Below are positions 1 to 57,196 of a stretch of 64,000 nt of DNA, piece after piece. The stretch's first letter is position 1. Every line of letters starts with the position of its first letter. The notes under the pieces are model-generated. The model ran no database searches and had not been told where the DNA came from. It was given only the letters and a program-made list of their open reading frames with translations. Source of the DNA: Bacillota bacterium (GTDB taxonomy: Bacteria > Bacillota > Sulfobacillia > JAJZIM01); the NCBI GenBank assembly GCA_021810565.1, contig JAJZIM010000003.1, forward strand, positions 8,911 to 72,910, read 5' to 3'. The position numbers were made by a program, and so were the translations under genes.

Positions 1-2649
1 GAGCAGGCGACGGTGTGGAACGCCTTCAACCAGATCCAGACTTACAAGAACGACATTCCATCCCTGTTTGCGTACAACGAGGTTTTGGTGATATCCGACG
101 GCCTGGAGGCGCGCGTCGGCTCCCTCACGGCCGACCGGGAGCGCTTCATGCCCTGGCGCACCATCGAGGGCGAGGACCTGGCGCCGCCGGGCCTGCCGCA
201 ATTGCAGGTGGTGATCCAGGGGGTTTTCGAGCGGAGCCGCTTCCTCGATCTGCTGAGGCATTTCATCGTATTCGAGACGGACGGGCCGGACGTCAGCAAG
301 AAGCTTGCCGGCTACCACCAGTTCCACGCCGTGAACCGGGCGGTGGAGGAGACGATCCGCGCGGCGCGGCTCCGTGCTGGGTACGGCATGGCGGCCGAGC
401 GTGAACCTGCGTACGAGGCGGGGGCCCGCATCGGCAGCGAGGCCGGAGACCGGCGCATCGGGGTGGTGTGGCACACCCAGGGGTCGGGCAAGAGCCTGAC
501 CATGGCCTTCTACGCCGGCAAGGTGGTGCAGCACCCGGCCATGGCGAACCCGACCATCGTGGTGCTCACCGACCGCAACGACTTGGACAGCCAACTATTC
601 GACAGCTTCGCCCTGGATCAGGAGCTCTTGCGGCAGGCGCCGGTGCGGGCGGAGAGCCGGGAGCACCTGCGCGTGCTCTTGCGGGTGGCTTCGGGCGGCG
701 TGGTGTTCACCACCATCCAGAAGTTCTTCCCGGAGGAGAAGGGGGCCCACCTGGCGGCGCTGTCCGAGCGGCGCAATATCGTGGTGATGGCCGACGAGGC
801 GCACCGGAGCCAGTACGACTTCATCGACGGGTTCGCCAGGCACATGCGTGACGCCCTGCCCAACGCCTCCTTCATCGGCTTCACCGGAACGCCCATCGAG
901 CTTGCCGACCGGAACACCCGTGCCGTCTTTGGCGACTACATCAGCGTGTACGATGTCCAGCGCGCCCAGGAGGACCATTTCACGGTGCCCATCTACTACG
1001 AGAGCCGCCTGGCGCAGTTGGCGCTGAGGGAGGAGGAGAAGCCGCGGGTGGACCGGGAGTTCGAGGAGGTTACGGAGCAGCAGGAGGAGACGGCCAAGGA
1101 GCGGCTGAAGAGCAGGTGGGCCGCCCTGGAGGCGCTGGTCGGCACCGACAAGCGCATAGACATGGTGACCCGGGACCTGGTGGAGCACTTCGAGCGGCGA
1201 TTGGAGGCCATGGACGGCAAGGCGATGGTGGTCTGCATGAGCCGGCGCATCTGTGTGCAGCTCTATGACGCCATCATGCGGCTGCGGCCGGAGTGGCACG
1301 ACGACGACGACCGCAGAGGCGTCGTCAAGGTGGTCATGACCGGCTCCGCCGACGATGCTGCGGAGTGGCAGCGGCACATCCGCAACAAGAAGCGGCGCGA
1401 GGAGTTGGCGAAGCGGTTCAAGGATTCGGAGGACCCCTTCAAGCTGGTTATCGTGCGGGACATGTGGCTCACCGGCTTCGATGCTCCGTGCCTGCACACC
1501 ATGTACGTGGACAAGCCCATGCGGGGCCACAACCTGATGCAGGCCATCGCCCGGGTAAACCGGGTGTTCCGGGACAAGCCCGGCGGCTTGGTGGTGGACT
1601 ACCTGGGGCTCGCCCCGCAACTGCAGGAGGCGGTGGCCGACTACACGGCGAGCGGCGGCAGGGGCAAGGCTGTGGTGAACCAGCAGGAAGCCGTGGCGAT
1701 CATGTTGGAACGGTACGAGGTCTGCCGGGACATGTTCCACGGCTTCGACTACTCAGGTTTCCTGACCGGCATGCCGGTGCAACGGCTGTCCATCCTGCCT
1801 GGTGCCCAGGAGCACATCCTGGCGCAGGAGAACGGCAGGGAGCGCTTCTTGACGGCGGTGTCCGCCCTGACCAAGGCGTTCGCCCTGGCGGTGCCGGAAG
1901 CGGCGACACTTCGCATCCGTGACGAGGTGGGCTTCTTCCAGACGGTGCGTGCGGCGTTGGCGAAGACGACCCGCGGCGCCGGCGCCGAGGAGGAGATGGA
2001 GCACGCCATCCGGCAGATCGTCTCGGGCGCGTTGGTTTCGGACAAGGTCATCGATGTCTTCGCCGCGGCGGGGCTCAAGAAGCCGGACATCTCGGTGCTG
2101 TCGGACGAATTCCTGGCCGAGGTGCGTGGCATGACACAGAAGAACCTGGCGGTGGAGCTTCTGCGGAAGCTTCTGAACGACGAGATCAGGATTCGCTCGC
2201 GCAAATTCCTGGTGCAGTCCCGCTCCTTCGCCGACAAGCTGGAGCAGGCCGTGCGGGCGTACCACAACCGGGCCATCAGTTCCGCCCAGGTGATCGAGGA
2301 GTTGGTGGCCATCGCGAAGGAGATGAGCGAGGCCAGGACAAGGGGCGAGAAGCTGTTCCTGAGCGACGACGAGCTGGCCTTCTACGATGCCCTGGAGGTC
2401 AACGACAGCGCGGTGAAGGTGCTGGGTGACGAGACGCTGCGGGCCATAGCCCGGGAACTGGTGGATACGGTGCGGCGGAACGTGACCATCGACTGGGCGG
2501 TGAAGCAGAGCGTGAAAGCCCGGCTGCGGGTCTTGACGAAGCGGATCCTGCGCAGGTACGGCTACCCGCCGGACAAGCAGGAGAAGGCCACGAAGACGGT
2601 GCTGGACCAGGCGGAGCTTCTGAGCGGGGAATGGATGCCTACCGAGTAA
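1..2649 (+). CDS. hsdR: Type I restriction enzyme R subunit (HsdR), 5'-truncated by window edge
   Basis: ORF 13..2649 has no upstream stop, so it continues off the window. Helicase motifs '[17 protein letters not shown]' (Walker A) and '[10 protein letters not shown]' (DEAH). C-terminal DUF3387-like tail '[32 protein letters not shown]'. Confidence 0.9.
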
Positions 2650-2673: not shown

Positions 2674-4830
2674 GTGAGGATCACCGGGATCCATGCGAGC
2701 AACTTTCTTTCCTTTGCTCCCGACAAGGAGGACGGCGGGCCGGGTGGCCTGCATCTGACAGGGCTTGTCCGCCCGCTCACCATCCTGGTCGGTCCGAATG
2801 GCGCGGGGAAAAGCAACGTGCTGCGCGTTGTGGAAATGATGATGGGTTTCTTGAAGGACAGACAACTGGACCAGGAAAGACTTGCGGAACTCAAAAGACT
2901 CTATCATCGGAATGCGAATTGTAGTCACATAGCCCTGAATCTTGATGTGATTTTTGATCGGCCAGAGGAGAGGGATCTGTTCGTACTCTTCTTCAGGAAT
3001 TTGTTGGTCGGACCGAGCAGCAAGACGACAAGCAATGCTTTTGGAGAACCAGGCCCAGCTGGAAAAGCCCTTATTCCAGACCGACTGGCGTCTCTTCAAG
3101 AACGGTTGAGCAATGATGTGGAAGAAAAAGATATAGAAGTATTATTTCAGGGACAGTTCAGATTGGAGGTCGATATTCGCAATCCACATAGTGATAGTTT
3201 AGCATTTATATGCCAAAACAGTCATGTGCCGCTTAGAGTGGACATACACCATCGTTATTGGGCAGGAATGATACGCTTACCTGCATCTGCGACCGAGGGT
3301 GCGGTTGAGAGACCGCTTCTTGAAGCTTGGATTATGGCTATTGACGCCAGCTGCCGGGAAAAGCTGGGGGAATATTTGACGGAGGAAACCGAAGTAAACA
3401 TGCCGGCTATTCCGCGATTTAGCTTCGCCAATCTAACAGCAAGCACGGGGATAATGCCTGTTCTATTGAACATCCAATTAGAGCAGCCTCAGCGTGTTTT
3501 GCCGATACGCATGGAGCTCAATCAACGATTGGGTAGAGAACCGACAAACACTGATTGGATGGGTTTAACCGAAGTATTTCGACGCTTGGTTCAGGGACAA
3601 GTGGTTTGCATAGATAACTGGTTTGTTGTTGACAAACCAGAACTCCCCGGTGCTGAAGATAGCCAAACGCTCTCAAGTGTACTATTATCTGAAGGAAATT
3701 TAGCAAGGTATCTGTTTGGGCTGAAGAACTCCCCCGACAAATCAGAGCGTGAGCTTTTAAAAGGCATGTTGGAAGATTATCGTGATTTAACTGGATCGCA
3801 GATTGACGCTGTTATGCACCATATACCAAGTAAACAGGTAATACGTCAACACAATCAAAAACCAGAAGTAGAACCCGGCAAGTATGTTATTTCGCTGATC
3901 ACTGATGAGGATATACCTCTCCGCTACAGCGGCTCGGGCAGGGCCCAAGCGGCCATGCTTTGCGCCCTGGCCCACCAGCACCAAGGGCGCGTGTTGATCC
4001 TGGATGAGCCCGAGACATTTCTTCATCCGACGCTGCAGTCCGTTTTTGCAGACCGCTTTATGAAGGGTGATGCTCAGTATATCGTCATAACACACTCGTC
4101 CAATATCATTCCAGCAGGCAAATTGGAAGTGGTCCGCCGTGTGTACAGCAAGCATGACAATGATTGGAGAATGTCCGAGATAACCCCCGCCATCGACGAT
4201 GACAAGTCCAAAGAACTCGCACTACGAAAGCGCGTCAGAAGGCCGGAGGAAGCTGCCTTTCTGTTTTCGAGATGCACGGTGTTTGTGGAGGGACCTAATG
4301 AGGCGGCCGCATTGCCGGTATGGTTTGATACATGGATAAAGGAAAAAGTCCATCTGAGCGCTGAAGCGTGCGGAGTTGTGTTTCAAGCTGCGAATGGCAA
4401 GAATGGCATTCTGCCGCTTCTTAAGATAGCAGACCTATTTGTAGTCAACTCCATTCCCCTATATGACGCTGATGTTTTAGGAACCGACAAGAAAGGAGAG
4501 AACGCAAATATTCTGAGGGGGTGGCAGGATTATGGCTTAATTTGCAGCAACGGAGGAAAGGTTGAGTTAGGTAAGGGGGCTTCGATAGCGCTATTCCCGA
4601 AGTGTACAAAATACCGAATATTTCTATGCGGCAAAAAGTTGACGGATGATTTTGAAAAACTGCCCGTTTGCAAGGACCACATTGAGGAGGCCAACAAAGA
4701 AACCGGTGGAGGCCCGTTGGCATACCGGTACATCGCGGAACATTATCCATGCCCCGATGAATTTGTGCCGCTGTTTGACAAAGCACTGGAGCTGGCAATG
4801 GATGCCCCTGGCCGGAGAATGGACAAGTAA
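2674..4830 (+). CDS. OLD-family ABC ATPase + Toprim nuclease (class-1 OLD or fused AriA/AriB PARIS-like)
   Basis: GTG start 24 nt after hsdR stop, preceded by GAAGGGGGG. Walker A 'ILVGPNGAGKSN', 'YSGSGRAQAAM', Walker B 'VLILDEPETFLHP', 'IVITHS'. C-terminal Toprim-like 'TVFVEGPNEAAALP' and 'LYDADVLGTD'. Middle of the gene is visibly AT-richer. Confidence 0.8.
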   Translation: MRITGIHASNFLSFAPDKEDGGPGGLHLTGLVRPLTILVGPNGAGKSNVLRVVEMMMGFLKDRQLDQERLAELKRLYHRNANCSHIALNLDVIFDRPEERDLFVLFFRNLLVGPSSKTTSNAFGEPGPAGKALIPDRLASLQERLSNDVEEKDIEVLFQGQFRLEVDIRNPHSDSLAFICQNSHVPLRVDIHHRYWAGMIRLPASATEGAVERPLLEAWIMAIDASCREKLGEYLTEETEVNMPAIPRFSFANLTASTGIMPVLLNIQLEQPQRVLPIRMELNQRLGREPTNTDWMGLTEVFRRLVQGQVVCIDNWFVVDKPELPGAEDSQTLSSVLLSEGNLARYLFGLKNSPDKSERELLKGMLEDYRDLTGSQIDAVMHHIPSKQVIRQHNQKPEVEPGKYVISLITDEDIPLRYSGSGRAQAAMLCALAHQHQGRVLILDEPETFLHPTLQSVFADRFMKGDAQYIVITHSSNIIPAGKLEVVRRVYSKHDNDWRMSEITPAIDDDKSKELALRKRVRRPEEAAFLFSRCTVFVEGPNEAAALPVWFDTWIKEKVHLSAEACGVVFQAANGKNGILPLLKIADLFVVNSIPLYDADVLGTDKKGENANILRGWQDYGLICSNGGKVELGKGASIALFPKCTKYRIFLCGKKLTDDFEKLPVCKDHIEEANKETGGGPLAYRYIAEHYPCPDEFVPLFDKALELAMDAPGRRMDK

Positions 4831-4875: not shown

Positions 4876-5109
4876 GTGTCTTCCTCGGAAGGCGGCCCTC
4901 CATTTGCGGGAGTGGTGCCGATGAGCCGCGATATCCTGGAGGCCGTGGAGACCCGCCTGGTGCTCGACTGGCACCGCAAGCGGGACCTTCAGCGGGACAT
5001 CCGCTCCGCCGTGAAGCACAGGCTGACGGACGCCGGCTGCCCGAGGGACAAACTTTCGCCCCTTGCCGATGAGATCATGAACCTGGCCCTCCGCCGGATC
5101 AAAGGGTGA
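4876..5109 (+). CDS. small ORF resembling an HsdR C-terminal (DUF3387-like) segment; possible gene remnant
   Basis: 'RLVLDWHRKRDLQRDIRSAVKHRLTDAGCPRDKLSPLADEIMNLALRR' parallels the hsdR tail '[43 protein letters not shown]'. It overlaps the DUF45 gene by 11 nt. Confidence 0.3.
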   Translation: MSSSEGGPPFAGVVPMSRDILEAVETRLVLDWHRKRDLQRDIRSAVKHRLTDAGCPRDKLSPLADEIMNLALRRIKG

Positions 5110-5803
5110 GGAACGGCCCGTTGCGCCGCAGCCAGTCCCGGCGCTGCTTTTGGTCCGGCAGCACGCACTCCACGGCATGCCAGAAGTCTTGGGAATGGGC
5201 CCGCACCTTGAGGTGGCAAAGCTCATGCACCACCAGGTAGTCCACCACGGACAGGGGGACCATGATGATGCGCCAGTTGAGGTAGATGGCCCCGTCACGG
5301 GCGCAGCTCCCCCAGCGCCGCTCCTGATGTTTGACCACCACGCGGGAGGGGGCGACGCCCATCCTGGCTGAGTAGAGGTCCACCCGCTCCGGCAGCCGCT
5401 CCCTGGCGCGTTCCTCGAACCACTTGACGAGAGCCGCCCGCACAGCGGATGCGTCGTCTTTTCCCGGCAGGGTGACGATGATCCGGTCTCCGCGCAGGGC
5501 GACCGACAACCTGTCGTCCTCCCGCACCTTCAGCCGATAGCGCCTGCCCAGGTAGGGGAACGACTCCCCGCTGACGAACTCCTTGGGTGCGGGTTGCGGT
5601 GCCGGCGGCGCCTCGCGCAGTTTGCGGATGATCCACGGCGCCTTGCGCAGAAGAATGCCTTCCAGCGCGGCGGAGGAAACCCCCTGCGGGGCGGCTACGA
5701 TCACCCCCCTGGCCGGCTCCACGGTGATGGATACCGTGGAGCGGCGGGGGCTCAGCCTGAGATCGTAGGCGATGGTCCTGGAGCCGAAGGACAGGACGGG
5801 CAT
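5099..5803 (-). CDS. DUF45/YgjP-like HExxH zinc metallopeptidase (M48-related), a common Type I R-M neighbour
   Basis: 'VVDYLVVHELCHLKVRAHSQDFW' HExxH motif. RBS GGAGGTG 5 nt upstream of the ATG. 234 aa. Confidence 0.8.
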   Translation of the reverse strand: MPVLSFGSRTIAYDLRLSPRRSTVSITVEPARGVIVAAPQGVSSAALEGILLRKAPWIIRKLREAPPAPQPAPKEFVSGESFPYLGRRYRLKVREDDRLSVALRGDRIIVTLPGKDDASAVRAALVKWFEERARERLPERVDLYSARMGVAPSRVVVKHQERRWGSCARDGAIYLNWRIIMVPLSVVDYLVVHELCHLKVRAHSQDFWHAVECVLPDQKQRRDWLRRNGPFLTL

Positions 5804-5943
5804 TGGAGCACCTCCACCGATACAGGTTCTACGCTGAGACGCAAATTCCTAGGCGGGTTCGGCCGGGATGGCGAAGGCGGCGGGTAGACCAGGGACTGCC
5901 CCGGGAGGAGTGTTGCCGCGTTGACGCAGGGACTGGCGCCTAC

Positions 5944-7014
5944 ATGAAAGCACCATCGGTAAACGGCGGCGAAGACCGCTCAAAGTGGCTCTTCGGTTTC
6001 CTAGGCGGCCTGATCGGCGGCATCGGCGCCGTGGCTGTCGCCGTCGTCCTGACGCCATATCTTCGCGGAACCACGGGCGCGGCGACTACCGGAGGGGCTG
6101 CGGGACTGGTGGCGGCAGTCTTCGGCGGGCTTGCCGCGCTGCTCGCGGTGGGCATAGCGGTGGTGGTGGCGATCCAGTGGATATTTTTAGACGAACGCGT
6201 CAAGGTAGCGATAACACGGCAGTCGGAGAAAATTGCCAGGGATATGGATGCGAAGGTGAATAGCGCAGTGCGTGGTATGGGAGAGTTCGTGTTGGCTTGG
6301 CAAGGTTTAGTACAGACGGAATGGGATGAATCTGGAATAAAAAAAGCGCTACAGCATTATCCACCCATTCCAAACGCCGCGGCTTTAACGGCTATGCATT
6401 TCATAAAGTTGGCTTATGACTACAAGAGACACATAAAGCAAGTCCAAAAGGGACAATATGCAGAAATTGCAACGAACTTAGCTGAATACTGGGCGGACGA
6501 AGCCATTCACTCGGTGGACAGCCACGATCCCGGGTATCCCGAGTATGTCAAGGCCTGTGTCCTGTCGCTGCGCAAAGAGCCTACGTCGGCAATGAACTAC
6601 CTGCGCCAAGCATTCAAGAAAAATCCCGGCTACACGGAGGAAATCATGTCTGACGAAGAATTATGGAACATAATTTTCGGCATGACACGTGGGGAGCAGG
6701 ACATAATAAAGCGCGTACTATCGCTATTCCGGCTGGAGCTACCAATAGACTCGGAGATACGCAATCACGCGGAGAACAGGGATCAGATGCAACGCTCGTA
6801 TTACTATGCCGTAAATAAGGAGACGGGCGATTCAGGAACAATATATATAGAGGGGATTCCTTCCGCAAACAAGTGGTCATATTTGGGATTCACTATTGAT
6901 GACCAATATAATAGCGACAATGTTGACGAGGTGTTGTCATATGCTTCAGATAAGTACATTATCACGAGAATAAAGCCGCACGAGGAATATGCCGCTCTGC
7001 ATTACGGCAAATAA
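5944..7014 (+). CDS. membrane-anchored protein of unknown function (two Gly/Ala-rich TM helices + AT-rich C-terminal domain)
   Basis: Internal ATG 'MKAPSVNGGEDRSKWLFGFLGGLIGGIGAVAVAVVLTPYL...GLVAAVFGGLAALLAVGIAVVVAIQWIF', followed by a ~270 aa hydrophilic domain encoded by AT-rich DNA. I recognised no family motif. Confidence 0.55.
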   Translation: MKAPSVNGGEDRSKWLFGFLGGLIGGIGAVAVAVVLTPYLRGTTGAATTGGAAGLVAAVFGGLAALLAVGIAVVVAIQWIFLDERVKVAITRQSEKIARDMDAKVNSAVRGMGEFVLAWQGLVQTEWDESGIKKALQHYPPIPNAAALTAMHFIKLAYDYKRHIKQVQKGQYAEIATNLAEYWADEAIHSVDSHDPGYPEYVKACVLSLRKEPTSAMNYLRQAFKKNPGYTEEIMSDEELWNIIFGMTRGEQDIIKRVLSLFRLELPIDSEIRNHAENRDQMQRSYYYAVNKETGDSGTIYIEGIPSANKWSYLGFTIDDQYNSDNVDEVLSYASDKYIITRIKPHEEYAALHYGK

Positions 7015-7164: not shown

Positions 7165-8472
7165 TTAACGCGACGCCCTGAACACCCCCGTCCAGACACC
7201 CATGCCCGCCGGCATGGTGACGGGCGCGCCGTCCACCGTCAGGCCGGCGGCAGCCGGGGCGCCGAGCTTCAGGTAGAGTTGGCCCGTGGACTTCCAGGTG
7301 GAGATGTTCCCGGGATACCGCATTCCCGCGAACAGCGTGGTTCCGTTGCTGGCGACGTCTACCCAGCACTGCCCGGTGAAGCTGACCGTGGCGGCCACGC
7401 TCCCGGCGGAAACGTCGTAGTCGTAGACGCCGTTCGACGCGGACACGAGGCGCACCGCGGGAGCCTTCGGCGGCGCGGCCGTGGTCGGGTGCCCCGGCCT
7501 GTCCATGATTACGACGACGGCGACCGGCACCAGGACCACGATGGCGACGATGGGCAGTGCTCCCCGCAGGCGGGAAGGGACATGATGCGCGGGCGCGGCC
7601 GCCGGGACGGACGGTGTTGCGGTGGGTGGCGGGGGAGGGGGCGCCGCGGGCGATGGCGGCGCGGCCGCAGCCGGCGCGCCCGCGCGTCGTTCCGGGGGGA
7701 GCACGAAGCGCCGGAACACGTCGGCCAACTGTTCCGGCGTGACCCCGGCCGGCAGGACGCCCGGCGTGTTCTGGATGACCAGGGGCGCAACGTCGGCCTT
7801 CACCACGGGCGCGGCGTCCTGCCCATCGATCACGGCGGCCTTGTGGGCCATGGCCACCAGGGCGTGGACCGGAACCTGGGCGAAGCCGCGCTGGTCCAGC
7901 ACGCGGCGGACGACATCCGCGTTGCGCAGCGCCTGCGCCACGCCGCTTGCCGTGCCCTCCACCACGCCGCGCTTCTCCCGCGACCATCCGGCGGGGGAGA
8001 CGCGGATGCGCCCAGCCCAGTTCTTCACCTCCACCACGTGCACGCCGTTGGGCCCGAAGACCAGGGCGTCGATCTCCACGCCGACGGGCCCCGCGTGGAC
8101 GATGCTGGCCGGCAGCGTGACGAATTCCCGCGGCAGGAAAGAGAGGTGGTGCAGCGTCTCCTCTTCGCCCTGCCGCCTTGGCGGCAATTTCGGACTGTTC
8201 CGGAGTTTCAATGATTGTGCCGGCTGACGGTTCAGAAAACCACCTGTGGCCGCAACGGAGACACGTCCACTGCTTGGGATCGACGAACAGATAGCATTGT
8301 TTTTGTCGTGCCAACTCAACCACGGTACGCCTGGTATTTGTACTTCCGCATGCTGGGCAGGCAATATCTTGATATTGCAGATGACCTCCAGCGGATTCAT
8401 TGACTTCCCTGGAAATCCACTGCAGGCGATGGCGGATCCAATAGCAGGGCAAACCATAATCCGCCGCTCCAT
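7165..8472 (-). CDS. NERD-domain protein with central TM segment and RodZ-C/DUF4115-like C-terminus
   Basis: 'VGVEIDALVFGPNGVHVVEVKNWAGRIRV' is a NERD core. Pro-rich linker, TM 'LPIVAIVVLVPVAVVVIM', and C-terminal 'VSFTGQCWVDVASNGTTLFAGM'. Start is uncertain (M at 8472 or 8400). Cys pairs lie near the N-terminus. Confidence 0.65.
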   Translation of the reverse strand: MERRIMVCPAIGSAIACSGFPGKSMNPLEVICNIKILPAQHAEVQIPGVPWLSWHDKNNAICSSIPSSGRVSVAATGGFLNRQPAQSLKLRNSPKLPPRRQGEEETLHHLSFLPREFVTLPASIVHAGPVGVEIDALVFGPNGVHVVEVKNWAGRIRVSPAGWSREKRGVVEGTASGVAQALRNADVVRRVLDQRGFAQVPVHALVAMAHKAAVIDGQDAAPVVKADVAPLVIQNTPGVLPAGVTPEQLADVFRRFVLPPERRAGAPAAAAPPSPAAPPPPPPTATPSVPAAAPAHHVPSRLRGALPIVAIVVLVPVAVVVIMDRPGHPTTAAPPKAPAVRLVSASNGVYDYDVSAGSVAATVSFTGQCWVDVASNGTTLFAGMRYPGNISTWKSTGQLYLKLGAPAAAGLTVDGAPVTMPAGMGVWTGVFRASR

Positions 8473-8710
8473 CGGCCACGCCCGGTCCCCGTCCGCCACG
8501 GAACCCCCGGTTTCGCTTCCCGGCCAAAAAGACGCCGTCTCCGCAAGGAGGCGGCATCTTTTTTCACTGGGGTCTCTTTCGCCGTGATCCGGTCGTTCAA
8601 CCCACCTCCCGTTTCCCGGCGCCGGGAAAAGCAACGGCCAGATCCGCGGCGCCGCAAGTTGCCTCTCCTGCGGCCACCGCGACGCTCCGGCGCCAGGAGG
8701 AGGTGTTCCT

Positions 8711-8926
8711 ATGCCGCAAGAAAAGCCCCCGTCCCTGGCGGAAGCTCCCGAGTTCCTGCGGATCGAGGAGGCCGCGGCGATCCTGCGGGTGAGCCGCAGC
8801 ACGGTCCACGCGGCGGTGCGCCGGGGCATGATCCCCGTCGTCGACTTCGGCCGCAAGCTGCGCATCCCGCGCCTTGCCCTGGAGCGCATGGCCGGGTTGC
8901 ACCGCGACGGCAAGGAGGTGGACTGA
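8711..8926 (+). CDS. excisionase-family HTH DNA-binding protein
   Basis: 'LRIEEAAAILRVSRSTVHAAVRRGMIPVVDFGRKLRIP' is an HTH_17/Xis-like motif. Confidence 0.7.
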   Translation: MPQEKPPSLAEAPEFLRIEEAAAILRVSRSTVHAAVRRGMIPVVDFGRKLRIPRLALERMAGLHRDGKEVD

Positions 8927-8927
8927 G

Positions 8928-9245
8928 GTGCCGATCGGCAACAAAACGTACCGGCGGTTCCTGGCGGAAACCGATCCCGAAGCGTTGGCGCGGCTTGACG
9001 CCGGGCGGTGCGTCAACTGCGGCATGCCCGTCACGCCGGATCATTTCCGCGGCTGGCCGGAGGTGTTCGCCCGCGAGTACCCCATCAGCGGCCTCTGCCC
9101 CGCCTGCCAGGTGGACGTGTTCGCGCCCGCGCCCGACGAGGAGTGCCGGTGGCGGACCACACCGGGCTTCTGCGCCCGGTGCGCCGCGATCCGGGGCTTC
9201 GACCCCGCGGACTGCCCCTCCCGGCGGGAGGGCGATCCCCGATGA
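8928..9245 (+). CDS. Cys-rich hypothetical protein (mobile-element passenger)
   Basis: GTG 2 nt after the previous stop. Motifs 'CVNCGMPVT', 'CPACQ' and 'CARCAA' suggest zinc-ribbon-like CxxC pairs. Its end overlaps the next ATG (ATGA). Confidence 0.45.
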   Translation: MPIGNKTYRRFLAETDPEALARLDAGRCVNCGMPVTPDHFRGWPEVFAREYPISGLCPACQVDVFAPAPDEECRWRTTPGFCARCAAIRGFDPADCPSRREGDPR

Positions 9246-9580
9246 CGCCGCGATTGGAGGACCTGCCCGACGTGCTGACCGTGCGGGAGGTGGCCGACGT
9301 CCTGCGGGTTAGCCAGTCCACGGTCTACGAGCTGGTGCGCCGCCGGCGGCTGCGCGCCGTCCGGTGCGGCATCGGCCGGCAGGGGGGCGTGCGCATCACG
9401 CAGTCCGTCCTGCGGGAGTACCTGGGACTGCCCATACCCCCGCGCACGGCGGCGGACGCGGCGGCCGCCGATCGCGGCAAGCTGGTGTTCCTGCCGACCC
9501 GCGGGGAGGAGCCGCCGGGCGCCGCGGCGAAGTCTCCCGGCAGCCGAAGCCCCGCCCGGCCGGGGAGGGGAAGCCGGTGA
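9242..9580 (+). CDS. excisionase-family HTH (HTH_17) DNA-binding protein
   Basis: 'LTVREVADVLRVSQSTVYELVRRRRLRAVRCG'. Confidence 0.7.
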   Translation: MTPRLEDLPDVLTVREVADVLRVSQSTVYELVRRRRLRAVRCGIGRQGGVRITQSVLREYLGLPIPPRTAADAAAADRGKLVFLPTRGEEPPGAAAKSPGSRSPARPGRGSR

Positions 9581-10692
9581 GGGGAACGATCCGAAAGGTT
9601 CCGGGAAAGCGGGGCGTCAGCTATGAGGTGAGGCTGGACTACCCCAGAGGCCCCGACGGGAGGCGCCGCCAGGCGTGCCGCCGTTATAAAGGACGGCGCG
9701 AGGCGGAGGACGCCCTGGCGCACATGCTGGCGGAGGCGCGGGACGGCGTGCCGATCGCCACGGAGCGGCTGACGGTGAACCAATACCTGGATCAATACCT
9801 GGAGGCCGTGCGGGGAACCGTGCGGGAGTCCACCCTGCGGGGCAAGCGGCGGATGCTGTCCTATTGGCGGCCGTTGCTTGGCGCCGCGCCCCTGGCGAAA
9901 CTGCGCCCGATGGACGTGCAGCGCGCGGTCGGCGCCCTGCCGGAGCGGCTTGCCATGGCGACGCGCACGGAGGCGTTCCGCGTCCTGCGCACGGCGCTTC
10001 GCCAGGCGGTCCGCTGGGGCATGCTGGCGCGGGACCCCACCGACGGCGTGCGGCCGCCGAAGGGCCCCGTGCGGGAGATGCGCGTGTGGTCGAGGGACGA
10101 GGCGGCCGCCTTCCTCCGGAGCGCGAAGGGGCGCAGGCTGTACCCCCTCTTCGCGCTGGCGCTGGCCACCGGGATGCGGGAGGGCGAACTGCTGGCCCTG
10201 CGATGGGACGACGTGGACCTGGCGGCGCGGGAGGTGTCCGTGCTGCACACCCTGCACTACCCGGACGCCGGCCCGTGGAGCCTGGCGGAACTCAAGACGC
10301 GAAGCAGCCGCCGCAAGGTGGCCGTGAGCCGGGAGGTGGCGGACATGCTTCGCGCCTGGCGCAGGCGCCAGAACGCCGAGCGGCTGGCGGCGGGCCCGGC
10401 GTGGGAGGACGACGGCCTGGTCTTCTGCGGGCCCCGGGGGCGCCCCCTGCGGCCTTCCGACGCCATCCACGCCTTCCACCGCGCGGCCAAGGCGGCCGGC
10501 CTGCCGCGCATCCGGTTCCACGACCTGCGGCACACCCACGCGACCGACCTCCTGGCGCGGGGCGTTCCCGCGCCGGAGGTGGCGGCGCGGCTGGGACACT
10601 CCAACCCAGCCGTCACCATGAGGGTCTACGCCCACGCCACCGCCGAGACGCGCGACGCCGCGGTGCGCGCCCTGGACGGACTCCCGTGGTAG
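9577..10692 (+). CDS. tyrosine-type site-specific recombinase (phage integrase family)
   Basis: GTG after GGGGAGGGGA. Catalytic region 'RFHDLRHTHATDLLARG' and 'VTMRVYAHAT' (R..H..R..Y). N-terminal SAM-like core-binding domain. Confidence 0.85.
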   Translation: MRGTIRKVPGKRGVSYEVRLDYPRGPDGRRRQACRRYKGRREAEDALAHMLAEARDGVPIATERLTVNQYLDQYLEAVRGTVRESTLRGKRRMLSYWRPLLGAAPLAKLRPMDVQRAVGALPERLAMATRTEAFRVLRTALRQAVRWGMLARDPTDGVRPPKGPVREMRVWSRDEAAAFLRSAKGRRLYPLFALALATGMREGELLALRWDDVDLAAREVSVLHTLHYPDAGPWSLAELKTRSSRRKVAVSREVADMLRAWRRRQNAERLAAGPAWEDDGLVFCGPRGRPLRPSDAIHAFHRAAKAAGLPRIRFHDLRHTHATDLLARGVPAPEVAARLGHSNPAVTMRVYAHATAETRDAAVRALDGLPW

Positions 10693-10828
10693 CCGATTGA
10701 GGGAGAATACCTCCGCCCATACGGCCGCGAAGCCCCGCGCCGCCGGCGTCCGCGGCCGCCGAAACGCGCCGCGCGTGACAATGCGTGATAGAATGAGGGA
10801 GTTTTTCCAGAACGGTTCCACCGGGGAG

Positions 10829-12880
10829 TCAAGAAACCCAGTCCCCGTGCGGCTTTGTCGGCACCCGCTCCACCTGCACCAGGTTGGTGTGGAAGGTGGC
10901 GCCGCCGCCCAGGTCCGCCAGGGCGTCGGAGGTGGTGGCGTTGCAGCTCCGCCCCTCGGGGTGGGTTCCCAGGTGCCAGCCGCCGGGGCTCACGGCCACC
11001 CCGGGGCGGGTGTGGTCGCCCACCCGGGCCGTGGCCCGGAAGGCGCCGCGGTCGTTGTGGATCCGGATCGCGTCGCCGTCGGCGATGCCGCGCGCCGCCG
11101 CGTCGGCGGGATGCAGGAAGACGTGGGGCGTCCCTTCCCTTTCCCGCGCCCACGGGAGCTCCCCGTAGGTGGAGTTCAGGAAATGGTGGGCGGCGGGAGT
11201 CACCAGGTGCAGCGGATAGCGCTGGTGCAGGGCGGGGGATCCCTCCCGGCTCTCCGCCGGCGGCGCCCAGTCCGGCACCTGGGCGAGGTCCACCCGGCCG
11301 TCGGGGGTGGCGAAGCCGTCCCGAAAGGGGACGTGGGGGCGCTGGGGCGTGTTCAGGCGCACCCAGTATTCCCGGCGCAGCCGCTCCAGGGTGACGCCCG
11401 CGAGGAAGGGGTGTCCCGAGGACAGGGCCTGCTCCGCCAGGTCCCAGTCGGAGTCGGCGAAGGCGTCCTCGGTGAAGCCCATGGCCCGCGCCAGGAGGCG
11501 GAAGGCCTCGGTGTTGGGCTTGGCCTCGCCCCGGGGGGCGATGCACGGCTGGTTGAGTCCCAGGTACAGGTGCCAGTAGGAGGTGTGCAGGTCCAGGTGC
11601 TCCAGCTGGGTGGTGGCCGGCAGCAGCACGTCGGCGAAGCGTCCCGTGTCGCTGACCCACTGGTCGTGGACCACCATGAACAGGTCCTCCCGGGACAGCC
11701 CCGCCAAGACCAGGTTCTGGTGGGGAGCCACCACCGCCGGGTTGGCGTTGTACACGTGCAGGGCCCGCACCGGGGGCGAGGCCTGGGTGAGGGCCTCCCC
11801 CAGGCGGTTCATGTTGATGCTGCGCACCGGCCCCGGGGCCAGCTCGGGCCGCTCCAGGAGCGCCGTGTTCAAGGGGAAGGCGCCGGAGTTGGACAAAAGC
11901 AGGCCGCCGCCCGGATCCCGCCACGCCCCCGTCAGGGCGGGCAAGAGGCTGATGGCGCGCACGGCGGCGCCGCCGTGGGTGTGCCGCTGCACGCCGTAGC
12001 CCAGGCGGACCAGGGCGGGGCGGGTGTGGGCCCATAGGCGGGCCAGCTCGCGGATGTCCGCCGCGTCCAGCCCGCACCGCTCGGCGCAGCGCTCCACCGG
12101 GTGGGCGGCCAGGTGCCGGGCGAGCGCCTCCCGGCCGCGGGTGTGGCGGGCCAGGTAGTCCCGATCCTCCCAGCCCCGGTCCAATATCTCCCGCATGATC
12201 CCCAGGGCCAAGGCCACGTCGGTGCCGGGCAGCGGCGCCAGGTGCCAGTCGGAGCGGCGGGCGCCGGCGTGGCGGTAGGGGTCGATGGTCACCAGCAGGG
12301 CGCCGCCTTTTTGCGCCTCGCGGGCGGCGAGCCAGCCGTGCAGGTTGGTGGAGAAGGGGTTTTGGCCCCAGAAGACGATGAGGCGGTTGTCCGCCATGGC
12401 TTCTGGGTCGGCTCCCTGGCGCGTGCCCAGCACCCGGTTCAAGGCCTGCGAGCCGGCGGCAGAGCAGATGGTACGCTCCAGGCGGGAGGCGCCCAGGCGG
12501 TGGAAGAAGCGCCGGTCCATGCCGGCGGACTGCAAAACGCCGTGGGTACCGTAATAGCTGTAGGGGAGGATGGCCGCGGGGCCGTCTTGGGCCGCGATCC
12601 GCCGGTAGCGCCGGGAGATGAGCTCCAGGGCCTCTTCCCAGGAGGCCTCCCGGAACTCACCGGCGCCCTTGGGGCCGGTGCGGATGCGCGGGGTCAAAAG
12701 CCGCTGGGGTCCGTAGACCCGATCCAGGTAGCGGCGCACCTTGGCGCAGACCACGCCCCGGGTGACGGGGTGGTCGGGATCCCCCTCGATCCGGACGGCG
12801 CGGCCGTCGGACACCTCCACCCGCAGGGCGCAGGCATCCCAGCAGTCGTGGGGGCACACGGCGCTCAGGTGGCTGGTCAA
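10829..12880 (-). CDS. molybdopterin oxidoreductase (MopB superfamily; formate dehydrogenase/anaerobic dehydrogenase-like)
   Basis: N-terminal 4Fe-4S motif 'CPHDCWDAC'. 683 aa. MopB-like blocks throughout. Confidence 0.8.
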   Translation of the reverse strand: MTSHLSAVCPHDCWDACALRVEVSDGRAVRIEGDPDHPVTRGVVCAKVRRYLDRVYGPQRLLTPRIRTGPKGAGEFREASWEEALELISRRYRRIAAQDGPAAILPYSYYGTHGVLQSAGMDRRFFHRLGASRLERTICSAAGSQALNRVLGTRQGADPEAMADNRLIVFWGQNPFSTNLHGWLAAREAQKGGALLVTIDPYRHAGARRSDWHLAPLPGTDVALALGIMREILDRGWEDRDYLARHTRGREALARHLAAHPVERCAERCGLDAADIRELARLWAHTRPALVRLGYGVQRHTHGGAAVRAISLLPALTGAWRDPGGGLLLSNSGAFPLNTALLERPELAPGPVRSINMNRLGEALTQASPPVRALHVYNANPAVVAPHQNLVLAGLSREDLFMVVHDQWVSDTGRFADVLLPATTQLEHLDLHTSYWHLYLGLNQPCIAPRGEAKPNTEAFRLLARAMGFTEDAFADSDWDLAEQALSSGHPFLAGVTLERLRREYWVRLNTPQRPHVPFRDGFATPDGRVDLAQVPDWAPPAESREGSPALHQRYPLHLVTPAAHHFLNSTYGELPWAREREGTPHVFLHPADAAARGIADGDAIRIHNDRGAFRATARVGDHTRPGVAVSPGGWHLGTHPEGRSCNATTSDALADLGGGATFHTNLVQVERVPTKPHGDWVS

Positions 12881-36881: not shown

Positions 36882-37475
36882 TCATTCGCGACGTGATTGT
36901 GAGCGCCAAGTAGATAACGCTAAATGGGAAAACTTTGGAGTTGTCCGCATTAAAGCGGAGAGGATGGCTTGTACTGAGTTCATTGGCTCGTGACGTTCTC
37001 GCGACAAGTTGTCTAATAATACCAGGAACCTATCAGGTGCCAATTCGAACTGGAAAAGCAAGAAGATATCCGGAGTTTGCACCTCAATTCCATATCTGCA
37101 GCAGATATCCGGTGGGAAGTGTTTAATATTGCATGTTACCAATACATCGGCACGAGCAGCGATGGCCGCCGCAAGAACGTGCCGATCATCCGCGTGGTTA
37201 CCGACATATGGTTCCAAGTTAGCATATGAGTATTTCTCAACCATTGCCTCCGGAAAGGCATCCTCCATGATGCCACGAAGGTACTTTGCTCCGGCAAGTG
37301 CCTCTTTAGGATTGGTGACGGTGGTGCGGCTGACGAGTGCTTTTTCCACTTCATCTAGGACGTCAGCGCTCCATTTGATTTGGCATATGCCAGCTTCGGC
37401 AATGGTAAGCAAAACATCCCGTAAAGTCGCTGGATATAAAACACATGAGTCGAGAAATGCTACGAATGCTGGCAT
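36882..37475 (-). CDS. PIN-domain toxin (type II TA)
   Basis: 'AFLDSCVLYPATLRDVLL...DDRHVLAAAIAARADVLVTCNIKHF'. Lies in an AT-rich patch. Confidence 0.65.
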   Translation of the reverse strand: MPAFVAFLDSCVLYPATLRDVLLTIAEAGICQIKWSADVLDEVEKALVSRTTVTNPKEALAGAKYLRGIMEDAFPEAMVEKYSYANLEPYVGNHADDRHVLAAAIAARADVLVTCNIKHFPPDICCRYGIEVQTPDIFLLFQFELAPDRFLVLLDNLSRERHEPMNSVQAILSALMRTTPKFSHLALSTWRSQSRRE

Positions 37476-37481
37476 AACCCG

Positions 37482-37958
37482 CTACTCATGTCCTTTGTCA
37501 TCTTTAACTGCCACCTCATTCTCATACAGTCCCAAAGACTCGGTGGCCCTGATCAACTCTCCCAACTGAGCATGACGCAGGGCGTCGCGCCGCTCCCCGA
37601 AGCGCACAAGGTCCTGTAGGCGGATCCTCCGGTGGGTGCCCACCTTGCGGTAGGCGATCTTGCCCTGCTCCAGGAGGCGCACCACATAGGGGCGCGACAC
37701 CTGCAAGATTTCGGCCGCCTGTTGGGTGGTCAGTTCCTGGCCCAGGTGAAGGATCATCACGGAGCAGCCTTGGGCCAGACGCTGGGCCGCCTCGGCGAGG
37801 ATGCTAAACAAGGTTTGGGGGACGGCATACCGCTCCCCGGTTTCCTCATTGACCAAGAAGCAGGAGGCCGTGCCGGCGCCAGACAGTTTGCCGGCCAAAC
37901 GGCGCAGTTGCTCGAGCTCCTGGGCGTCGGCGACCAGGGGACGACTGGTGGGTGACAT
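37482..37958 (-). CDS. HTH (excisionase-family) DNA-binding antitoxin partner of the PIN toxin
   Basis: 'LTTQQAAEILQVSRPYVVRLLEQGKIAYRKVGTHRRIRLQDL'. 6 nt upstream of the PIN gene. Confidence 0.6.
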   Translation of the reverse strand: MSPTSRPLVADAQELEQLRRLAGKLSGAGTASCFLVNEETGERYAVPQTLFSILAEAAQRLAQGCSVMILHLGQELTTQQAAEILQVSRPYVVRLLEQGKIAYRKVGTHRRIRLQDLVRFGERRDALRHAQLGELIRATESLGLYENEVAVKDDKGHE

Positions 37959-38513
37959 TTCGAAGCACCTCCTCGGCACCGCCGCTATTCCCGCCGGTGC
38001 TATTATACCCGATAAACGCAATAAACGCAATGATGCCTGCGAATCCTTGGCCCGTCCCCGGGGGGAGCCTTGGCCTGGGTGTTCCGAGACGGCGCTGCTT
38101 TGGCTGGCCCTCCGGAGCGAACCTGCCCGGGGAGCCATTACCACCCTGAGGGATCCCGTCACCGGGAACCTGTCGTCACCGGCCCATCAGGGCTTTCAAA
38201 ACTAGCTGTCCGACCGGTGGGGGAACATCGGACGCAAACCGGCCCAGGAGCACGCCGTCGCGGCGGTGACCCGCACTCCCGGGCCCGCTGAGATCGACCG
38301 GAAGCCCGCGCCGTACCTGAAGCCGGGGAGGAGGTGGCCTTCTCGGACAGCCGTGGGCGACCTGGGCGGCGCCGGCGGCGGGTCCACGAGCGCCGCCGGG
38401 TGGCGGACTTCCCGGGGCCCGCTTTTTTTATGCGCCGGCAGGAGGAGCCGCACCGTCGGTAGAAGTGATGAGGGGAGGAAGGAACCGGAAGCGGGAGAAG
38501 GAGTGGATGAGCT

Positions 38514-42652: not shown

Positions 42653-42708
42653 GTCCGTTGCAAGCGTGCGGTTTGTTTCAGTTGTTCCAAGAGGGGGCGG
42701 TGGTGTCT

Positions 42709-43851
42709 ATGGTCAACCCGTTCAATCCCTACTATCCGGCGGAGGCGGCATTTTTCGCCAACCGGCGGCGGGAACAGGAATGGTTCAGGCGTGGGCTGCT
42801 GCCGAGCCTGCGTCCGGAAAGTGCGGGACCCTGGAACGCGGCTATTTTGGGCCCGTGGGGCATCGGCAAGAGCAGCCTGGTTCGTAGGCTCAGGGAATTG
42901 GCCCGGGAGACGGAGGTTCCGCCGGGGGTGGTGGTCGTCGGCTGCACCACGGGCTACGGCTCCCTGCTGGGGTTCACCCGCTCGCTCATAGGGAGCATGA
43001 AGGAGGAGATGTTGAGCCTGGCCGGTTGGTCGGAAGCCGTTCGCACCGAGTTGGAGCGTTGGTCGGTGCAGATCCAGCTACCGGGGGTGGCGCTGCGCCG
43101 GGGACAGCGTCAGGCTCCCGAGGAAGCGGCCAACGTGGCGGAGCTGCTTCGCTCCACCCTGCGGCGTTACTGGGAGCAAATCCTGGAGCCGGCCGGAAAG
43201 ACCCTGCTGTTCGTTTTGGATGACGCGGACCTCTTGCAGGTCATGGATCCAAACGCCTTGATGATCTTGCGGGCGGTGTTCCAGGATCTGCATATGTATC
43301 GGGCTCGCTATGGTTTGGTCATCACCGGTCCCTCGAACCTGTTCGGCGAGGTCAGGGAGGTGGCGGAGCCGGTCACCCGATTTTTCGAGCACCTGCCTTT
43401 GCGGGAGTTCGACCTGGACGACACCACCGATGCCGTAAGACACCCACTGCAGCAGGTTCATGCCCCTATCCGGGTATCCGACGAGGCGGTGGGCTGGGTG
43501 TGGGAACAAAGCCATGGCCATCCCTATTTTGTTGCTTTCATCATGCGCGATGTAGTGGATGAGGCCATGAAACAAAAATGGGATCGGATCGATATTGAGC
43601 ATTTACAAAAATGCTGGCCATATGTGAGTGCGCATCTGGAAACCGAGAAATTTCTGGCAGAATGGACTTATGCCACCCCGGCAGAGCGGCAAATTCTCCA
43701 AGCTCTAGCCACAGGCAAGCACATCGGAGAAGGAAAAAGCGCACTGATGTCCAGGCTGGTGAGAAAAAACCTAATATATCGAATAGAGCGCGGACAATAC
43801 GCTATTTACCATCCATTATTTGCAGAATTCGTGAGAAATCAAGCCGAATAG
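42709..43851 (+). CDS. AAA ATPase (archaeal-ATPase/AAA_16-like P-loop NTPase) with C-terminal winged-helix-like domain
   Basis: Walker A 'ILGPWGIGKSSL', Walker B 'LLFVLDDADLL'. The last ~100 codons are AT-rich. Confidence 0.65.
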   Translation: MVNPFNPYYPAEAAFFANRRREQEWFRRGLLPSLRPESAGPWNAAILGPWGIGKSSLVRRLRELARETEVPPGVVVVGCTTGYGSLLGFTRSLIGSMKEEMLSLAGWSEAVRTELERWSVQIQLPGVALRRGQRQAPEEAANVAELLRSTLRRYWEQILEPAGKTLLFVLDDADLLQVMDPNALMILRAVFQDLHMYRARYGLVITGPSNLFGEVREVAEPVTRFFEHLPLREFDLDDTTDAVRHPLQQVHAPIRVSDEAVGWVWEQSHGHPYFVAFIMRDVVDEAMKQKWDRIDIEHLQKCWPYVSAHLETEKFLAEWTYATPAERQILQALATGKHIGEGKSALMSRLVRKNLIYRIERGQYAIYHPLFAEFVRNQAE

Positions 43852-56925: not shown

Positions 56926-57196
56926 CTCGTTTCGACCTCCTCGCGGGTCCGCCGCGACGGTCGCAGGGCCCGGCAACCGGCTGTCCTGGCCGCGCCGCGG
57001 CTTTAGACCCATGGCTTTGCGTCCCCGCCTTTCGGCGGGTTTGCCCTTGGCAGGCTCACCTGATATTTCGTGCGCGACCGGCGAATTTGGGTGGGTGGCG
57101 CCGGGACGGTCGAAATCCGATCTTGACAAAAACCGCGGCGCAGGGCAGAATAAGCGGTAGCATACCGCGTAGGGTATATGAAGGAGGATTCTCGGG

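Follow-up and report, generated by a model that had tools for sequence, protein, structure and literature searches.

The subject of this study is a gene for a predicted membrane-anchored protein in 64,000 nucleotides of DNA from a Bacillota bacterium (GenBank assembly GCA_021810565.1, contig JAJZIM010000003.1, positions 8,911 to 72,910 of the forward strand), referred to below as the window. The gene, hereafter the target gene, occupies positions 5944..7014 of the window on the plus strand and forms a single open reading frame (ORF) of 356 codons, which runs from an ATG at 5944 to a TAA at 7014 and encodes 356 amino acids. An identical protein was already present in the database, where it is labelled "hypothetical protein". 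The ORF and its translation, the homologues and the ratio of nonsynonymous to synonymous substitution rates (dN/dS) identified a complete gene whose product belongs to a family without a name. The target gene is part of an island that is bounded by an integrase and has a cargo that varies from strain to strain. It is likely to be immune-related and is a good candidate for an anti-phage gene. It is separated from a YgjP-like gene on the minus strand by a divergent intergenic region (5804..5943), read from the sequence. A possible ribosome-binding site (AGGGA) was found 11 nt ahead of the ATG. A sigma-70 scan of 5804..5943 detected no promoter-like site; presumably the target gene has its own promoter within this region.

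The hydropathy profile of the protein (Kyte-Doolittle, 19-residue windows) showed peaks at windows 18-36 and 59-77, with no hydrophobic segment beyond residue 95. Transmembrane helix 1 (approximately residues 16-40, 5989..6063, plus strand, peak 2.26) carries the conserved residues G22, G25 and G26, and transmembrane helix 2 (approximately residues 52-81, 6097..6186, plus strand, peak 2.74) is supported in addition by column conservation; the helix limits are our reading of the hydropathy peaks. The two helices anticipated in the preliminary description of this DNA were recovered as a hairpin without any later hydrophobic segment. Positions 22, 25 and 26 of helix 1 are occupied by small residues in 82-94% of the 17 full-length members of the family. 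Helix 2 is the best-conserved segment of the N-terminal half and displays a ladder of small residues (G54, A57/58, G61, A64/65, G68, A72 and A76) followed by Q78-W79. Both the ladder and Q78-W79 are 76-100% conserved across the 17 full-length members, which share 25-40% identity, and the motif Q-W-x-x-L-D-x-R-V at the junction to the soluble part is likewise conserved in the full-length members. Three lysine or arginine residues precede helix 1, one is found in the 12-residue loop and seven are found in the 29 residues after helix 2. This charge distribution suggests that the N-terminus is inside, that a short loop faces outward and that the C-terminal 275 residues are cytoplasmic.

Small-residue ladders mediate tight helix packing. 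The conservation of such a ladder on helix 2 argues that the hairpin does more than anchor the protein and probably serves in helix packing or oligomerisation. Toxins that damage membranes depend on comparable glycine-zipper motifs for their toxicity (PMC10434224, PMC12955049), and toxins of this kind, such as TelE of the type VII secretion system (T7SS) and LXG-T2, likewise carry small residues every 3-4 positions on a hydrophobic helix (PMC10434224, PMC12955049). However, this resemblance is at the level of the motif and not of homology, and the toxins are secreted, whereas the target protein is predicted to be a resident inner-membrane protein with a large cytoplasmic domain. In database searches the hairpin gave a match to TolQ in the Protein Data Bank (PDB) that was not significant (E 0.34) and was kept merely as a lead. 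Matches to tape-measure proteins in PHROGs (E ~0.007) were rejected as compositional, as they cover the Gly/Ala-rich hairpin.

The structure of the cytoplasmic part was modelled with AlphaFold2 on an alignment of four sequences. The full-length model reached a predicted local distance difference test score (pLDDT) of 72.5 overall and of above 90 for residues 200-345. Three elements were distinguished in this part. A long cytoplasmic helix (residues 84-125, 6193..6318, plus strand), seen in the AlphaFold2 model and in the motif conservation, opens with the conserved L-D-x-R-V. It is followed by a TPR-like helical repeat domain (residues 130-262, 6331..6729, plus strand), assigned on the paired helices of the model, conserved columns and weak Foldseek matches, which contains the motifs P-x-x-P-N-A-A, A-E-Y-W-A, S-H-D-P-G-Y-P-E, K-E-P and G-M-T-H-G-E. 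The third element of the model is a C-terminal alpha/beta domain (residues 263-345, 6730..6978, plus strand) with the order alpha-beta4-alpha-beta and the conserved residues G295, W311 and I339. When this domain was modelled alone with 21 sequences, the pLDDT was 92.1 and the predicted template-modelling score 0.79; Foldseek returned no match for it in the PDB (best E 0.3).

The sole named family matched by the target protein is NCBIfam NF047558 (TPR_END_plus, "TPR end-of-group"), which covers residues 201-243 (6544..6672, plus strand) with an E-value of 5.6e-9 and 35.8 bits against a cut-off of 32, and which is also matched by 13 of the 25 aligned family members. This is a domain-level assignment and implies no function. 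In agreement with it, the best structural neighbours of the full model in the PDB were TPR proteins, although these matches were weak (E 0.07-0.6, TM-scores 0.2-0.47) and neither the PDB nor BFVD contained anything at E <= 0.001. The likeness to TPR proteins is restricted to one short stretch, with the hairpin and the C-terminal alpha/beta domain lying outside NF047558. Pfam recognised no family at E <= 0.01 in the target protein, the canonical TPR families included. The term TPR-like is a description of residues 130-262 and does not place the protein among the canonical TPR repeat proteins. When the protein and a profile of 25 sequences were searched against the PDB sequences, no match fell below E 0.16.

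A motif scan of the target protein found no P-loop, HExxH, PD-(D/E)xK or GxSxG. Invariance among 25 diverse members is confined to L220, G250 and G295, with K211, A223, W311 and I339 nearly invariant. As this set lacks polar residues of the enzyme type, it is not the pattern of an enzyme, and the cytoplasmic part most likely acts as a binding or sensing module. The preliminary description had found no motif that it could place in the soluble part. This still applies to P-loop, nuclease and protease signatures but not to the fold, in which a TPR-like repeat (NF047558) and a compact alpha/beta domain are now recognised.

The gene had also been described as chimeric in composition, with about 85 GC-rich codons for two Gly/Ala-rich transmembrane helices followed by an AT-rich part for a soluble domain of about 270 amino acids. 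This layout was borne out by the GC content, which is 0.655 in codons 1-85 versus 0.469 in codons 86-357, and the two AT-rich strings that had been quoted were both located (at 6182 and 6336). The DNA of the soluble part (6200-7014, 815 nt) has a z-score of -3.5 and belongs to the lowest 0.4% of equal-sized windows in the 64 kb, where the mean GC content is 0.67; comparable AT-richness was found only in the adjacent OLD-like gene. The step is located at ~6200, at the start of the long helix (residues 84-125). The first 85 residues contain 19% Gly, 18% Ala and 13% Val, and in the hairpin Gly and Ala together reach 36%. Between codons 1-85 and the rest, the GC content falls from 0.72 to 0.52 at the first codon position (GC1) and from 0.53 to 0.35 at the second (GC2). 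Because of the high Gly and Ala content of the hairpin, much of the step is therefore driven by amino-acid composition. However, the third position (GC3) also changes, from 0.72 in codons 1-85 to 0.54 in the rest, which is a step in codon usage beyond the amino-acid content. The attribute "chimeric" consequently holds for the order of the two parts and for the GC3 step, but not for that large share of the contrast which the amino acids impose.

The GC3 values of the host genes (hsdR, ygjP and the molybdopterin oxidoreductase gene) are 0.87-0.94, well above those of both parts of the target gene, so that the entire gene looks foreign or imported. In homologues from other hosts the GC difference between the N-terminal part and the rest is mostly just 0.02-0.11. 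Two explanations of the step were rejected: a pure amino-acid effect, since both GC3 and the synonymous divergence (dS) change at the junction, and the proof of a recent chimera, since both Thermaerobacter alleles carry the step, which is therefore older than their split.

The closest relative of the target protein is P0002 (72% identical) from a Thermaerobacter sp. metagenome-assembled genome. Its locus (L001) has the same island backbone of OLD and YgjP (minus strand) genes followed by the family gene. The DNA identity between the two islands is 0.9-0.98 over ygjP and the hairpin-coding part, drops to 0.6-0.85 after ~6300 and disappears past the stop codon, where the cargo differs between the strains. 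Correspondingly, dS between the alleles was 0.16 for ygjP, 0.28 for codons 1-85, 0.74 for codons 86-356 and 1.1 for codons 263-356. Against this allele dN/dS was 0.18-0.37 throughout the target gene, which shows that it is functional and subject to purifying selection. The change in composition occurs where the conserved island backbone meets the variable cargo slot. Judged from the sequence, this position is the signature of recombination and not of a mis-called ORF, and the target gene is real, intact, under purifying selection and mosaic. That the AT-rich part might be a separate gene had been raised in the preliminary description. This was rejected, because the single ORF is conserved: both parts are read as one ORF in 17 full-length homologues, with the low dN/dS just given.

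The family is small. A word-indexed search of 5.8 billion proteins yielded four members, and an exhaustive profile search of 1.84 billion cluster representatives yielded 38. The 17 full-length homologues join the hairpin and the soluble part in one frame, in hosts of 44-67% GC. Most members originate from thermophile and soil metagenomes. No homologues were found in IMG/VR viral contigs, GenBank phages or PLSDB plasmids, and the 64-kb window contains no paralogue of the family. No further architectures came to light when a profile of just the C-terminal module was searched. The 5027 models of PADLOC-DB v2.0.0, including the PDC and HEC candidates, gave no match to the window protein or to P0006, P0010, P0019, P0040 and P0041.

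The genomic context of the homologues was compared in a small sample of about ten lineages that share only 25-53% identity. In six of the eight lineages with readable context the family gene is located in or beside restriction genes (type I, type III or Mrr). In lineage i, which comprises the window and L001-4, the order is HsdR, OLD-like, YgjP-like (minus strand) and family gene. Lineage ii (L006/7) has the order NTase_sub_bind, MNT::HsdS, family gene and HsdR, the start of the family gene overlapping the hsdS stop by 4 nt. In lineage iii (L018-20) HsdM and HsdS are followed by the family gene after 12 nt, and in lineage iv (L016/17) the family gene is found ~1.2 kb from an MNT::HsdS gene on the opposite strand. 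Lineage v (L005 and L008) has a type III Mod gene, the family gene 2-3 nt on, a HicBA or ORF6N gene and type III Res. In lineage vi (L022/23) the family gene follows Mrr by 48 nt and stands beside a kinase-helicase and a PLD protein. Lineage vii (L014/15) has it among a resolvase and genes without assigned family, with no adjoining restriction gene, and lineage viii (L024) among integrases and resolvases, with a type II system 3.8 kb off. In lineage ix (L026) it overlaps an upstream gene of no recognised family; the contig of L025 was too short for its context to be read. In several lineages of less than 45% identity the family gene stands between the subunit genes of type I or type III operons, either overlapping its neighbours or only a few bases away from them.

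In L006 (530-2164) and L017 (10130-11788, minus strand) hsdS was read as a fusion with an N-terminal nucleotidyltransferase (Polbeta/NTP_transf_2), which resembles an MNT/HEPN-type module merged into hsdS unless it is an artefact of gene calling. In L008 (6912-9941) a type III Mod methylase with a Hint/intein-like insertion and a DUF559 endonuclease has a PKD-like end just before the family gene.

Embedding of a gene in a restriction operon is an accepted indication of a role in defence, and this principle ("guilt by embedding") has been applied systematically (Payne et al., bioRxiv 10.1101/2024.01.29.577857). The target gene is an object of the same kind as the genes embedded in BREX, DISARM and type I restriction-modification systems that PADLOC lists as HEC or PDC candidates (Payne et al., 2024), and the same logic holds for it. 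None of the 5027 PADLOC models matches the target family. The neighbourhood survey supports part of the role in a defence island that the preliminary description had assigned to the gene: the context is one of defence, with restriction genes in most lineages and TIR genes in a sister clade, but OLD and NERD genes are not recurrent partners. Neither a remote relationship to a housekeeping family nor a conserved non-defence context was found.

The sister clade comprises P0025 and P0040-42, in which the C-terminal module (equivalent to residues ~195-345) is kept on a different N-terminus with three to four hydrophobic segments. At all four loci there is a TIR_2 gene upstream, which the family gene either overlaps by 4 nt or follows after a few bases. 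The TIR partners (L009 4515-6032, L010 8835-10004, L012 1175-2608 and L013 1560-3050) possess N-terminal transmembrane helices and a long coiled coil and, at the C-terminus, a TIR domain in which W-x-x-x-E is retained; they weakly match PADLOC PDC-S66 and bSEFIR. Each TIR partner, together with the family member downstream of it, makes up an undescribed TIR module of two genes, both for membrane proteins, which is carried on Tn3, integrase or resolvase elements. When the four TIR partners were compared with the 64-kb window by tblastn, no TIR-like sequence was detected (best E 0.49), and no TIR gene stands beside any clade-A member.

The gene for a type I restriction subunit HsdR is cut at the 5' end of the window (13..2649, plus strand; Pfam T1RH-like_C, SWI2_SNF2 and HSDR_N; PADLOC REase_I, E 3e-299). 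It is followed by a gene for an OLD-family ATPase-TOPRIM nuclease (GajA-like) recognised by Pfam and PADLOC (2674..4830, plus strand), which is AT-rich (GC3 0.51), has no adjoining GajB-like helicase and is mosaic relative to the sister allele, with 64-93% identity per 100 nt. The YgjP-like metallopeptidase gene (5099..5803, minus strand; Pfam PF01863, E 1.6e-63), divergent from the target gene, is kept beside it in the sister strain. On the other side, and convergent with the target gene, lies a gene for a protein with NERD, one transmembrane helix and RodZ_C (7165..8400, minus strand; Pfam), which is missing from the sister island L001. Its ORF had been listed as 7165-8913 (minus strand; 582 amino acids, TTG start), of which the first ~170 codons are Arg/Pro-rich and do not look like coding sequence. 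With M172 (window 8400) as the start the protein has 411 amino acids and retains both Pfam domains. The succession of NERD domain, Pro-rich linker, single transmembrane helix and RodZ_C indicates a membrane-anchored, nuclease-like protein. The right end of the island is marked by a tyrosine integrase gene (9364..10692, plus strand; Pfam Phage_integrase, E 1.3e-31), whose true start is probably downstream of 9364. It abuts a molybdopterin oxidoreductase gene (10829-12880, minus strand). Window positions 8694-11548 are 92% identical at the DNA level to the HTH_17/integrase/molybdopterin-oxidoreductase segment of L001. No tRNA gene was found anywhere in the 64-kb window.

The location of the target gene between the restriction/OLD block and the NERD gene agrees with the preliminary description. 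The gaps around it (140 nt and 150 nt) leave no translational coupling, as had been stated, but this is a property of the window: most homologues are tightly packed in a restriction or TIR operon. NERD or OLD as functional partner was rejected, as the NERD gene is swapped for other cargo in the sister strain and neither gene occurs near distant homologues. In the sister island the NERD slot (L001 4412-10394) is filled with genes for DUF1257, DUF2997 and Fer4_12 proteins, a 933-amino-acid double-AAA (Cdc48-like) ATPase and a 640-amino-acid protein without Pfam match; this cassette differs from the cargo of the window and may be defensive.

Three further features were seen elsewhere in the window. 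A full-length c-di-GMP-I riboswitch aptamer (56969-57055, minus strand; Rfam RF01051, 77.7 bits, E 1.4e-13) is unrelated to the target gene. A second low-GC patch (36882-38162, minus strand) codes for one PIN_3 and one HTH_17 protein, which may constitute a toxin-antitoxin-like pair. Another low-GC patch (42658-43851, plus strand) covers the 3' part of a STAND-like ATPase gene (AAA_16 and AAA_22, with NACHT below the Pfam cut-off), which may be another immune-type gene.

Taken by its genomic neighbours, the linkage of the family to defence is well supported. In position the family fits the restriction-embedded class as well as the Thoeris pattern of TIR genes followed by transmembrane effectors, but its sequence places it in neither; we therefore read it as a new family of defence-associated membrane protein. 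Context and architecture would also be the basis for the label "abortive-infection or sensor protein" given in the preliminary description. We tentatively propose, at somewhat less than even confidence, that the target protein is an abortive-infection or guard protein which is restriction-embedded, acts on the membrane and has its sensor in the cytoplasm. Two features of known classes agree with this proposal. A position in or directly beside a restriction-modification operon, as in PrrC-type guards, is seen in the embedded homologues and, as a shared island, in the window, and the transmembrane segments of pore-forming or membrane-disrupting abortive-infection effectors have their counterpart in the two hydrophobic helices with the conserved ladder. 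According to this proposal the protein would lie inactive in the membrane next to an immune enzyme of the first line, in the window the type I restriction system. Its cytoplasmic module would detect infection or the failure of that enzyme, upon which the hairpins would assemble into an oligomer and compromise the membrane, leading to abortive infection or growth arrest. Control of hairpin assembly by a module that senses a signal or binds a partner would be the most economical mechanism.

Guards of this kind have precedents. PrrC in EcoprrI guards the restriction enzyme, embedded genes forming a second line when restriction fails (PMC12707154), and TgvAB is located in a Vibrio type I system (PMC11411939). 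With PrrC/EcoprrI (and RloC), an abortive-infection effector within a type I restriction operon, the family has in common an extra gene between or beside hsdS and hsdR (L006 and L018-20; after hsdR in the window). However, PrrC is a cytoplasmic ATPase-like anticodon nuclease, whereas the target protein is predicted to be membrane-embedded and has no ATPase or nuclease motif, and the target family also occurs with type III, Mrr and TIR partners and has no relation to a PADLOC defence model. Homology to the ABC-ATPase-like head and anticodon nuclease of PrrC and RloC was not found, as there is no P-loop and no match in Pfam, NCBIfam or PADLOC.

Several observations weigh against a membrane-acting abortive-infection or guard protein. 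The hairpin was modelled with a pLDDT below 50. The target gene itself lies 3.3 kb downstream of hsdR in the same island, divergent from YgjP and standing alone rather than in a restriction operon, and L014 and L024 have no adjoining restriction gene. There is no homology to any characterised defence protein, the six members compared with PADLOC having no match. Finally, the diversity of the partners (type I, III, IV and TIR) speaks against a single specific physical partner and could simply reflect shared location in defence hot spots. Another reading, for which we see only a slim chance, is that the conserved cytoplasmic module (TPR-like repeat and alpha/beta domain) is a new, portable immune "coupler" of unrelated enzymes (type I, III and IV restriction, TIR) to a membrane killing device. 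The protein would then be a PrrC-like guard that acts on the membrane instead of tRNA and fires when phage anti-restriction proteins block its partner.

The main alternative, possible but less probable than the proposed abortive-infection or guard protein, is a membrane adaptor or guard whose TPR-like and alpha/beta module binds the restriction complex (or, in the sister clade, the TIR protein), and which either holds the enzyme at the membrane where phage DNA enters or fires upon its inactivation by an anti-restriction protein, in the manner of PrrC with EcoprrI. TPR-like repeats are typical protein-binding scaffolds. In most lineages the family gene lies close against an hsdS, mod, mrr or TIR gene or overlaps it, and the TIR partners are themselves membrane-anchored, which suggests a membrane complex. 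Such an adaptor would also fit the guard logic of PrrC and PARIS, which is established for restriction systems (PMC12707154). However, one conserved interface for partners from unrelated enzyme classes is hard to picture, and in the window the target gene is not co-transcribed with restriction genes.

It is unlikely that the family is non-immune island cargo, for instance a membrane-stress or mobile-element maintenance protein travelling with restriction genes. The loci L014 and L024, among integrases and resolvases, would be explained in this way, and the family is too rare for robust statistics and matches no defence model. But insertion within type I and III operons in several distant lineages speaks against it, the coupling to TIR genes at four of four loci is hard to explain by hitch-hiking, and the phage, plasmid and viral collections hold no homologue.

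An effector of the Thoeris type, in which the C-terminal module would bind a nucleotide-derived signal and the membrane part would kill the cell, appears improbable for the target protein. Such a signal receiver is plausible for the sister clade, whose gene is always second in a TIR operon with the W-x-x-x-E of the TIR domain kept, but not for the window, which has no signal producer. TIR genes with transmembrane effectors are the Thoeris pattern, and in ThsI a TPR domain has been proposed to perceive cyclic ADP-ribose (bioRxiv 10.64898/2025.12.03.692087). Thoeris effectors with N-terminal transmembrane helices (TM-Macro of type II; ThsF, ThsG and ThsH of newer types) also resemble the target protein in having membrane helices followed by a cytoplasmic non-enzymatic domain, and the sister clade in its place as second gene of an overlapping TIR operon (bioRxiv 10.64898/2025.12.03.692087). 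However, the target protein lacks Macro, SLOG, SLATT, DUF2270 and DUF6650 (no Pfam match), and neither Pfam nor structure matches revealed these or similar signal-binding domains. No nucleotide-binding fold was recognised and the PADLOC Thoeris models do not match. An adjacent TIR gene is found only in the sister clade (L009-L013); tblastn detected neither a TIR gene nor another signal-producing enzyme in the window, and the clade-A members are not accompanied by TIR.

An artefact, that is two genes or a decayed fusion read as one ORF after recent recombination at the GC/AT junction, would account for the sharp composition step at ~6200 and the about threefold rise of dS across it, but is practically dismissed by the common frame in 17 homologues (hosts 44-67% GC), the conserved Q-W-x-x-L-D-x-R-V and a dN/dS below 0.4 on both sides.

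If the target protein is not defensive, it would simply be another hypothetical, island-borne membrane protein. If it is defensive, it would add a new protein family and a new C-terminal fold to the restriction-embedded genes, and it would be unusual in spanning restriction operons of three types and TIR operons. The thermophile and soil metagenomes from which the family mostly comes are under-sampled in defence screens. The gene stands alone, measures just 1 kb and offers clear targets for mutation in the helix-2 ladder, and it lends itself readily to testing. The sharing of one family among such different systems would provide a handle on the wiring of second-line responses to first-line enzymes.

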